A DNA stretch of 34,735 bases, taken from the NCBI GenBank assembly GCA_964391305.1, contig CAYMJO010000004.1, positions 1 through 34,735 on the forward strand, given 5' to 3'. Origin of the DNA: an uncultured Candidatus Saccharibacteria bacterium (GTDB taxonomy: Bacteria; Patescibacteriota; CALEFQ01). Shown here one piece after another: positions 1,823 through 25,300 of the stretch. Below the pieces are notes generated by a model, which had not been told where the DNA came from, made no database searches, and saw only the letters and a list, made by a program, of their open reading frames with translations. How positions within the stretch are numbered: the first letter of the stretch is position 1; each line of letters starts with the position of its first letter. The translations under genes were made by a program, and so were the position numbers.

Positions 1823-2056
1823 TTAGAAGTTTTTTAAGTATTCCTTTCCACATCCCGATTTTAGATATTTTTCTCTTTTTCTAGCTTCGATTCTCGAGTC
1901 ATATTTTTCAATCATTATGATTTGAAAGGGTCTATACGATTTAGTTGTCTTATTATATCCTTTATTATGTTGCTCAATTCGGCGCCTTGGGTTATCTGAT
2001 ATACCTACGTAGATGTAGACATTTTTTAGACTTTTGAGAGCATATACGTAGTACAT
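1823..2056 (-). CDS. stand-alone GIY-YIG nuclease family protein, 77 aa
   Basis: MYYVYALKS..YIYVGISDNPRRRIEQHN..G..TT..YRP..E..EARKREKYLKSG matches the small GIY-YIG pattern (Y, YxG, R, H, E). Confidence 0.9.
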   Translation of the reverse strand: MYYVYALKSLKNVYIYVGISDNPRRRIEQHNKGYNKTTKSYRPFQIIMIEKYDSRIEARKREKYLKSGCGKEYLKNF

Positions 2057-2069
2057 AGTGTTTTTACTT

Positions 2070-2134
2070 ATGCGATTTTGAGCCTGCCTGCCGGCAGGCA
2101 GGTCGCACGCGTATACCAGTTCCGCCACGTCGGC
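2070..2134 (-). pseudogene. duplicated 5' half of tRNA-Leu(CAA) with a 20-bp palindromic insertion in the anticodon arm
   Basis: 2070-2140 is identical to 1773-1823 except for CCTGCCTGCCGGCAGGCAGG at 2083-2102; no variable arm, T arm or 3' acceptor strand. Confidence 0.92.
2083..2102. repeat. perfect 20-bp GC-rich palindrome CCTGCCTGCCGGCAGGCAGG (REP-like)
   Basis: Equals its own reverse complement; absent from the intact tRNA copy. Confidence 0.95.
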
Positions 2135-6251: not shown

Positions 6252-6473
6252 AGAACACGGCATTATACACCATATTGGTCTATATGTCTATATTAGCATG
6301 TATTTTTGTATAAAAAAATGCCCGAGATGCTTGTCTATCGATAGGCAGATCTGCCTATCAGCAGGCGGGCAATTCTGAAATTTTAAGCATCTCAATCATT
6401 TAAAAGCGGCATTGTATTTTGAAATGCTGTCATTTCACTATATAAATAATCATATGAAACTCAATTGACTTTG

Positions 6474-8696: not shown

Positions 8697-8805
8697 ATCT
8701 TTTTAAAATTCGAAACACGAAGCACGATTCCGCCGCGGCGGGATCGATATTCGGATTTTGGATTTTTTGTCAAAAACATCTTGAACTATCATTTTTTTTA
8801 AGTCT

Positions 8806-24956: not shown

Positions 24957-24985
24957 AAGCCCCCGTGGATCCACGGGGGCTTTTG
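24957..24985 (+). terminator. ftsZ terminator, 26-bp perfect palindrome
   Basis: AAGCCCCCGTGGATCCACGGGGGCTT running into a T-rich tract. Confidence 0.75.
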
Positions 24986-25300
24986 TAATTTGACATTTAT
25001 TTGGATTTTGGATTTTGAAATTTGAAATTCTAGCAAGTTATCCCCAACTTTTCTATTCCCACGAAATTTTCTATATGGTATATATAAAAATACAGAGAAT
25101 TTTTTTACGAAGTTAATTTTTTTAAAAAAGAATTTGAAAGTTGTTTTTGTCGGAAATTTATTTTTTTTAAATAAAAATTCACGAGTTGTCAATTAGATAG
25201 AAGTGTTGTCTAATTTTTTATAGAGAGCTAAAAAATTTGCCGACTTTTCCACAGTTTTGAAGCTTAATGTTACATATCCGATATAAAAAGTTGCAATTTT

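Follow-up and report, generated by a model that had tools for sequence, protein, structure and literature searches.

How does a perfect palindrome come to lie, cleanly inserted, inside a broken copy of a tRNA gene and directly before a gene for a very small nuclease? This question is raised by a locus in an uncultured Candidatus Saccharibacteria bacterium (assembly GCA_964391305.1), within a stretch of 34,735 nucleotides of contig CAYMJO010000004.1 that we refer to as the window. The palindrome, CCTGCCTGCCGGCAGGCAGG, occupies positions 2083-2102 and is here called PAL20; the adjacent gene encodes a 77-residue protein of the GIY-YIG type. PAL20 is a discrete 20-bp inserted unit, and the family to which it belongs is spread across phyla. 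We favor, with some reserve, the reading that an Ssn-like mini-nuclease has PAL20 as its cognate single-strand hairpin, and that the two form a selfish pair similar to that of repetitive extragenic palindromes (REPs) and the REP-associated tyrosine transposases (RAYTs).

Filled and empty forms of the insertion site are both present in the window. On the minus strand, the partial copy of tRNA-Leu(CAA) reads ...GCGTGCGA|PAL20|CTCAAAATCGCAT and the intact gene reads ...GCGTGCGA|CTCAAAATCGCATGG. The difference is exactly 20 bases, with no deletion and no target-site duplication, and only one base (C) at the boundary is ambiguous. The original prediction, made from the letters of this DNA, had described a precise insertion of a perfect 20-bp palindrome with its empty site in the same window, no deletion and at most 1 nt of ambiguity, and this description holds in each respect. 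PAL20 entered at about raw tRNA nucleotide 32 (31/32 or 32/33), where the 5' strand of the anticodon stem meets the loop. As single-stranded DNA it is predicted to fold into a hairpin (-8 kcal/mol) around which the anticodon stem closes. It lies 26 nt from the ATG (position 2056) of the GIY-YIG open reading frame (ORF), the distance given in the original prediction.

A scan of the window allowing up to 3 mismatches gave one PAL20 match, and none of 100 shuffled windows contained any. The genome from which the window comes (980,551 bases in 90 contigs, 40% G+C, rated 99% complete) was also scanned. The original prediction had proposed to count matches genome-wide and had named uniqueness of the 20-mer as a result that would speak against it; on this point it failed, as the exact 20-mer is unique in the genome and the degenerate pattern proposed with it also occurs once. 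Three further sites have 3 mismatches, and a reversed control pattern gave 0.

Several trivial origins were considered. An adapter or assembly artefact was ruled out, since PAL20 is found in isolate genomes and in many independent assemblies, and contigs from groundwater span it. Contigs of two runs of a groundwater study (X1 and X2) cover PAL20 without differences, and X1 may be the source sample; in a third run a contig end falls inside PAL20. No empty allele within the population was seen in the contigs of these three runs, nor any joint or skipped form; contigs omit rare variants, so this absence settles nothing. Palindromic filler from hairpin opening at a break was ruled out because PAL20 is not an inverted copy of its own flanks. 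For a 20-mer of like base composition, chance would by a rough estimate account for about 0.5 to a few occurrences in 596 billion bases, against at least 123 observed. PAL20 is not an intrinsic terminator: no T run follows it and 0 terminator-like sites were found, and the stretch from the promoter to the tRNA likewise contains no terminator-like site.

PAL20 belongs to a larger cassette, which the original prediction had missed: it had recognized the palindrome correctly, and not the dead tRNA copy, the nuclease gene and the rebuilt tRNA as a single arrangement. Read on the minus strand, the order is promoter, leader, dead 5' copy with PAL20, 13-nt spacer, nuclease gene and intact tRNA. A putative tRNA-Leu promoter (TTGACA, 17 nt, TATAAT; 2228-2256) matches the consensus at 12/12 positions. 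The sequence AGCTAA (2135-2140), a 6-nt upstream flank duplicated together with the 5' part of the tRNA, recurs at 1818-1823, before the intact tRNA. Raw tRNA nucleotides 1-32 follow at 2103-2134, and on the other side of PAL20 nucleotides 33-45 (the anticodon loop and the 3' strand of the anticodon stem) at 2070-2082; both parts are 100% identical to the intact gene by blastn. The dead copy as a whole thus comprises AGCTAA plus tRNA nucleotides 1-45 (2070-2140 minus the palindrome). The 13-nt spacer AAGTAAAAACACT (2057-2069), with no obvious ribosome-binding site, leads to the gene for the 77-residue, single-domain GIY-YIG nuclease (1823-2056), whose stop codon overlaps the second AGCTAA by one base. 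The intact tRNA-Leu(CAA), which shows the empty site, lies at 1731-1817 (found by ARAGORN; 58.9 bits with the Rfam tRNA model). It is the only tRNA-Leu(CAA) that ARAGORN found in the genome, and the only tRNA in the window.

Behind the tRNA's own promoter there is therefore a cassette of about 0.32 kb consisting of PAL20, tRNA nucleotides 33-45, the spacer, the nuclease gene, and a fresh AGCTAA with tRNA nucleotides 1-32. Next to this cassette, the tRNA gene has been rebuilt. Such a topology would be expected from a single crossover (Campbell-type, from a small circle) or from ends-in integration, in either case within the 5' part of the tRNA. A group I or other tRNA intron was ruled out, as an intact tRNA is present and an Rfam search of positions 1500-2500, with E-values up to 1, returned tRNA only and no intron family. 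A mechanically called ORF (1823-2128, minus strand, GTG at 2128) runs through the dead tRNA copy and PAL20 and joins the nuclease in the same frame (...LPAGRQA...); the ATG at 2056 was taken as the true start because homologues begin with MYYVY. The leader (2141-2227) measures about 85 nt and contains two small hairpins, GGGCAA...TTGCCC and AGAACC...GGTTCT, which earlier insertions may have left behind; only about 12 nt separate the -10 box from the tRNA in one relative (G001).

Comparison with relatives shows that the cassette has been gained and lost at this syntenic locus, with states from empty through remnant to full. The gene parA adjoins tRNA-Leu(CAA) divergently in five relatives, with ParA proteins 61-72% identical, and a TTGACA-N17-(C/T)ATAAT box precedes the tRNA also in G001, G002 and G003. 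In G001 the promoter leads directly into the tRNA; the contig ends at tRNA nucleotide 53, so that emptiness is shown on the 5' side only. G005 is empty, neither a nuclease gene nor a palindrome being present within 1.5 kb, and G004 is the same except for another gene between parA and the tRNA. In G003 the nuclease gene is absent and a dead 5' copy contains another hairpin, of about 45 nt, and G002 has a truncated palindrome (16/20 bases) in a degenerate remnant, again with no nuclease gene. The full cassette is present in the window's own genome. Between the start of parA and the tRNA there are 71 nt in G001, 125 nt in G005, 178 nt in G002 and 211 nt in G003, compared to 548 nt in the genome studied here. 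Filled and empty states, which the original prediction had proposed to look for between strains, were thus found among relatives. When synteny was sought through the downstream epimerase gene, no close orthologue was detected in 4 genomes of the same family.

PAL20 is not confined to this lineage. A scan of one genome per species found at least 123 stretches with the exact 20-mer, of which 80 were fetched. By record title these comprised 23 Patescibacteria, 22 Bacteroidota, 6 Omnitrophota, 8 Planctomycetota/PVC, 8 Gammaproteobacteria/Pseudomonadota, 3 delta-proteobacteria, 2 Bdellovibrionales, 3 Thermodesulfo- lineages, 1 Chloroflexi and 4 unlabelled records, the taxon labels of metagenome bins being possibly unreliable. 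The G+C content of the loci ranged from 0.31 to 0.70. A further 40 loci with exact PAL20 were found in viral contigs of IMG/VR. ARAGORN detected a tRNA at 9/80 of the genome loci and at 1/40 of the viral loci. Allowing up to 2 mismatches, PAL20 was present in 16/41 relatives of the phylum with 1-16 copies each (reversed control, 0), and five PAL20-bearing genomes of other lineages had 3, 8, 1, 49 and 9 copies, the 49 being in a Bacteroidota genome, that of Longitalea luteola; all five had GIY-YIG matches. Longitalea luteola and Flagellimonas are among the isolates in which the exact 20-mer was found.

The discreteness of the unit is evident from clean insertions at seven tRNA positions, where the empty site could be read from an intact tRNA in the same locus. 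These are 6/7 (tRNA-Ile in a WWE3 genome), 12/13 (L038), 14/15 (L035), 20/21 (L009 twice and L007), 22/23 (L008 and L071), 31/32 (the window) and 56/57 (L063). Within the window's own family, L009 has near copies in two dead tRNA-Asn copies, L007 retains a 17-base remnant in a dead tRNA-Phe copy, and L160 has PAL20 upstream of the nuclease ORF. PAL20 also lies in the D-loop of a dead tRNA-Asp copy in another family (L008), and in a dead tRNA-Lys copy in a WWE3 genome (L071). Flanks are not conserved past position +1 (T in 63/162 half-sites; A|PAL20|T in 21/81). Joined flanks had a paralogue of at least 18/24 in the same locus for 14/81 PAL20 copies, compared to 17/810 controls. An enclosing stem of at least 6 bp was present around 15/81 copies and 82/1620 control junctions (Fisher p 2.7e-5), and the enclosed copies include cases of a palindrome within a palindrome. 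Abutting direct repeats of at least 6 nt were found at 6/81 copies and 28/1620 controls. A miniature inverted-repeat transposable element or insertion sequence was ruled out, as the unit is the 20-bp palindrome alone and its insertions in tRNA copies lack duplications.

In some relatives the dominant form is CCTGCCTGCCGGTAGGCAGG, a variant of PAL20 made asymmetric by one letter. The one-contig genome G028 (C1) has 14 sites of this variant, 10 on the plus and 4 on the minus strand; read without reference to the replication origin, this bias showed no pattern by position in G028. In the viral contig L264 (656-747), ARAGORN predicted a 92-nt tRNA-Met with PAL20 in place of a long extra arm, and this tRNA may tolerate the insertion.

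The protein encoded beside PAL20 is, by its Pfam match, its catalytic residues and its modeled alpha/beta fold, a member of the GIY-YIG superfamily. Residues 1-67 match PF01541 with 64.8 bits (cut-off 22.6) and an E-value of 9.2e-18, which bears out the family assignment of the original prediction. In the GIY-YIG catalytic core, roles are assigned to Tyr, Tyr, Arg, His and Glu residues; Y5, Y16, G18, R26, H30, E62 and K66 were invariant across 60 homologues. The AlphaFold model has a pLDDT of 96.4 and consists of one compact domain. The best Foldseek matches were At-HIGLE (7wme), Slx1 (6seh, TM 0.72 on the query), UPF0213 (1zg2/1ywl) and I-TevI (1ln0), and the UvrC nuclease domain was also matched. 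NCBIfam and PADLOC scans returned 0 families each, and tblastn of the protein against a plasmid collection gave no match. The closest homologue (61% identity) is from a member of the Chitinophagaceae (Bacteroidota), and it, too, is located at tRNA-Leu(CAA) with PAL20. That locus is a mirror image of ours: an intact tRNA with a terminator is followed by the nuclease gene and then by a dead 3' copy, the T-loop of which holds PAL20. In Flagellimonas, a truncated homologue with 57% identity precedes tRNA-Leu(CAA).

Small GIY-YIG genes are found at tRNA genes elsewhere as well. The window's genome has five GIY-YIG matches, four in small genes and one in a 499-aa frame, and all four small genes abut tRNA genes. 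GIY-YIG homologues were present in 29/41 genomes of the phylum, with a maximum of 12 per genome. Among 13 loci of relatives inspected, a recognizable dead tRNA copy was present in 12 (not in L023), and in all 12 the D-loop, anticodon loop or T-loop contained, or had given way to, a GC-rich hairpin.

Some of these loci deserve separate mention. A second cassette of the same design lies at tRNA-Leu(UAA) on contig C34 of the same genome (850-1600, minus strand; also 1752-1985): TTTTTA with tRNA nucleotides 1-41, the anticodon loop of which holds a double hairpin of about 60 bp, an 84-aa GIY-YIG gene and an intact tRNA. A weak Y1_Tnp match (E 2.5e-6) is located about 0.5 kb from it. On contig C55 (1-600), tRNA-Met and a GIY-YIG gene have tRNA-Met-like fragments on both sides; these carry TCCCGCCCTGGCGGGA, which substitutes part of the anticodon arm, and the contig ends within one fragment. 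Three tandem GIY-YIG copies beside tRNA-Met were observed at L233 (G044:C11:46500-48100), in the Bacteroidota genome with 49 PAL20 copies. ARAGORN found only 25 tRNA genes in the window's genome, several of them at contig ends (C20, C46, C55, C71, C75), a sign that its assembly may be interrupted by duplicated tRNA pieces.

A link between PAL20 and the nuclease is indicated by position, by distribution and by protein phylogeny. A GIY-YIG ORF is located 19-65 nt from PAL20, or from a near copy of it, in the window and in L007, L008, L009 (on both sides), L160, L071, L044 and G045; in the window, L007, L008, L009, L160 and L071 the palindrome lies 19-61 nt before the nuclease ORF. In L095, the part matched by the GIY hidden Markov model starts about 40 nt after PAL20, within a longer open frame. 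Co-occurrence with GIY-YIG genes, which the original prediction had proposed as a check, was observed among the 41 relatives: small GIY-YIG genes were present in 15/16 PAL20-bearing and 14/25 PAL20-free genomes (Fisher p 0.013), and the counts of the two were correlated (rho 0.53, p 4e-4), kinship being uncorrected. The same text had named tracking of a RAYT-type transposase as the contrary outcome; Y1_Tnp was found in 9/16 PAL20-bearing and 13/25 PAL20-free relatives (p 1; rho 0.12), so PAL20 does not follow it. In a protein tree of 74 homologues (9 of 83 hits were left out because of length or as same-frame duplicates), the PAL20 label, borne by 6 rows with that of L007 assigned by eye, required 3 changes compared to a shuffled mean of 5.8, and 0/500 shuffles were as low. 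Five of the 6 labeled rows fell in one 10-row clade, with support of 89/91, below the tool's threshold for well-supported clades.

The clean insertion in a dead tRNA copy beside the nuclease gene, together with the identical 20-mer in many phyla, points to a very small and largely undescribed selfish element made of a hairpin and a nuclease. The nearest described system is that of the Ssn proteins, single-domain GIY-YIG enzymes of about 94 aa such as SsnA from Neisseria meningitidis, which bind hairpin repeats (NTS/SRM) flanking their own gene and cut single-stranded DNA beside them (PMC11893778). In its Discussion, the authors liken GIY-YIG genes with hairpin repeats to insertion sequence elements and REP/RAYT (PMC11893778). 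The locus described here resembles this system in the single GIY-YIG domain (77 compared to about 94 aa) and in a GC-rich hairpin repeat that is both beside the gene and dispersed; size and domain structure fit a candidate member of the Ssn family (cd10448). It differs in that PAL20 is a perfectly symmetric 20-mer without an oriented flank and does not fit the published SRM motif, in copy numbers of 1-49 rather than hundreds, and in a gene nested in a duplicated tRNA gene with PAL20 adjacent on one side only. The Ssn hairpin repeats, and the REP/RAYT-like idea for them, are already published (PMC11893778); this palindrome and its nesting in tRNA genes appear in none of the papers searched. The main text of that paper on Ssn mentions neither tRNA nor Patescibacteria nor GGCAGG, and its supplements may list related motifs. 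Neither the 20-mer nor the tRNA-nested cassette was described in any paper that our literature search returned, no later Ssn paper turned up, and the papers found on Patescibacteria and the candidate phyla radiation mention GIY-YIG only in passing.

Comparison with REP/REPIN elements is also instructive. As in REP/RAYT systems, a short non-autonomous palindrome family is accompanied by a single nearby nuclease gene and presumably acts as a single-strand hairpin; unlike in them, the enzyme beside PAL20 is GIY-YIG rather than an HUH Y1 protein, and PAL20 does not track Y1_Tnp. REPs are lineage-specific, whereas PAL20 is identical across phyla. Fungal mitochondria offer other parallels. In Allomyces atp6, a mobile endonuclease ORF together with a duplicate gene end displaces the old piece, which is left as a relic, and the mitochondrial GC clusters or double-hairpin elements are small GC-rich palindromes that insert into AT-rich DNA. 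These cases differ from ours in that they involve organellar protein genes, not bacterial tRNA genes, and no fixed 20-mer is known to be shared across phyla.

A mechanism can be outlined for the hairpin-nuclease pair. When DNA becomes single-stranded, during replication, heavy tRNA transcription or DNA uptake, PAL20 would fold as a hairpin. The nuclease would recognize this hairpin and nick beside it, as Ssn does with its own repeats. Repair of the break by recombination or template switching would then duplicate the adjoining sequence and copy the hairpin, and sometimes the gene, to new places. Genes for tRNA may be favored because they are conserved and self-complementary and provide homology arms in distant hosts. 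Of the original proposal of a mobile palindrome tied to GIY-YIG, the discrete unit, which was found at seven tRNA positions, and the co-occurrence are borne out, and cleavage and mobilization by the nuclease are inferred.

A number of observations weigh against pairing PAL20 with this nuclease. GIY-YIG enzymes hydrolyze DNA, and we know of no strand transfer by them, which leaves the copying step without a known enzyme. A GIY-YIG ORF was located within 700 bp at only 4/80 genome and 1/40 viral loci with exact PAL20; the adjacency noted in the original prediction is real in the window and at several other loci, and does not extend to the remaining 76/80 and 39/40. Among the 8 listed of 16 PAL20 sites in G028, none was within about 1.8 kb of a GIY-YIG match, and G009 (87% completeness) has PAL20 and no GIY-YIG match. 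The window's genome holds one exact and three degenerate copies. The co-occurrence p-values are overstated because relatives are not independent. Proteins linked to PAL20 do not form one clade: that of L160 is placed elsewhere, and the main clade includes members with other hairpins. By sequence, the best solved relatives of the 77-residue protein are UPF0213 EF2693 (E 3.3e-5) and Slx1. The published SRM motif has 2 matches in the window's genome (shuffles 0-3), none of them within 700 bp of the 4 nuclease genes. Finally, SsnA recognizes NTS directionally, and PAL20 is symmetric.

Two other explanations deserve discussion, and we regard both as unlikely. One is a classical free-standing homing cassette, in which the nuclease introduces breaks in double-stranded tRNA genes and its gene is copied in as these are repaired; the hairpin would protect the relic, either by destroying the cleavage site or by splitting the direct repeat against recombinational deletion of the cassette. 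The location of the gene in tRNA genes recalls phage T4 SegB, a free-standing GIY-YIG homing endonuclease in a tRNA gene cluster, with selfish inheritance of the region (PMC2330249). The end of the duplication near the anticodon loop at many loci, and the filled and empty states at the syntenic locus of relatives, are also as expected of homing endonucleases, and hairpins in 12/12 recognizable dead copies leave identity tracts of mostly 20-39 nt. However, the 77-residue protein is a bare catalytic domain without the DNA-binding domain of Seg-like endonucleases. SegB is larger, has multiple domains and cuts double-stranded DNA, and we know of no dead tRNA copies or hairpin partner associated with it. 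The intact tRNA copy retains any target site, so the host would be cut, and a 38-nt uninterrupted repeat persists in the window despite the proposed protection. Homing also leaves unexplained why one identical 20-mer is shared across phyla, with many copies far from tRNAs and nuclease genes.

These distant copies, the majority, are better accommodated if PAL20 is an independent selfish palindrome, moved by another enzyme or by host repair, that accumulates, as the nuclease genes do, in dead tRNA copies and the few other neutral spots that small genomes offer. The preference of PAL20 for the inside of other hairpins relative to control junctions, the short direct repeats that sometimes flank it, and the G009 genome fit this view. 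That it is nevertheless improbable follows from the clustering of the PAL20 label on the protein tree, the co-occurrence and count correlation with GIY-YIG genes, the lack of a Y1 transposase link, the repeated location of PAL20 within 65 nt of such a gene, across at least eight genomes from three phyla, and the triple link between a protein clade, PAL20 and tRNA-Leu(CAA) across phyla. A role at the RNA level, as a 5' stem-loop that stabilizes or processes the nuclease mRNA within the tRNA transcript or regulates read-through to the tRNA, would suit the position of PAL20 between a consensus promoter and the ORF and 19-61 nt before the start codon at six loci, but is very unlikely given that PAL20 lies downstream of the gene in G045, L044 and L073, that most copies are near no such gene, that a perfect palindrome has no loop and is followed by no T run with 0 terminator-like sites, and that clean insertions at unrelated sites would remain unexplained.

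If the hairpin is indeed the recognition site of the mini-nuclease, the two would be a natural sequence-enzyme pair acting on single-stranded DNA, and PAL20 would have spread between phyla apparently without a transposase or integrase. Such a pair would make testable how small palindromes multiply and why small GIY-YIG genes adjoin tRNA genes in many bacteria, would account for dead tRNA fragments and broken assemblies at tRNA loci of ultra-small bacteria, and would provide a defined 20-base substrate as a new specificity in the toolbox of Ssn-type enzymes. A more far-reaching reading, which we put forward only tentatively, is that PAL20 and its nuclease of about 80 residues constitute a self-propagating DNA element, the smallest known from bacteria, measuring about 0.3 kb when the gene is included and 20 bp when it is not. 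This element would move single-stranded between phyla, possibly on phage or taken-up DNA, use conserved tRNA sequence as homology arms while the split gene is rebuilt, and insert preferentially at loop-stem junctions of existing hairpins (tRNA arms and other palindromes). Recognition of this hairpin by the nuclease would then explain why the 20-mer is letter-perfect in more than ten phyla.

Other hairpins and repeats were also observed in this genome. A second hairpin family, TCCCGCC/GGCGGGA, is represented in the window by GATTCCGCCGCGGCGGGATC (8726-8745) and has 14 copies in the genome, several of which lie in tRNA fragments (Pro on C39, Lys on C19, Met on C55); four copies have about 25 nt of common flank on each side. 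The window further contains an intergenic perfect palindrome, GATAGGCAGATCTGCCTATC (6340-6359), and an intergenic hairpin with a 12-bp stem, AAGCCCCCGTGGATCCACGGGGGCTT (24957-24982). AT-rich simple sequence with units such as TTGACAT, GGATTTTG and AAATCCAAA is present at 2287-2345, 8746-8790 and 24983-25030 of the window and on contig C9 (4300-4440). This AT-rich sequence adjoins several of the GC hairpins, as well as one palindrome copy in another genome (L069), and some of the AT-rich units score as -35-like boxes.

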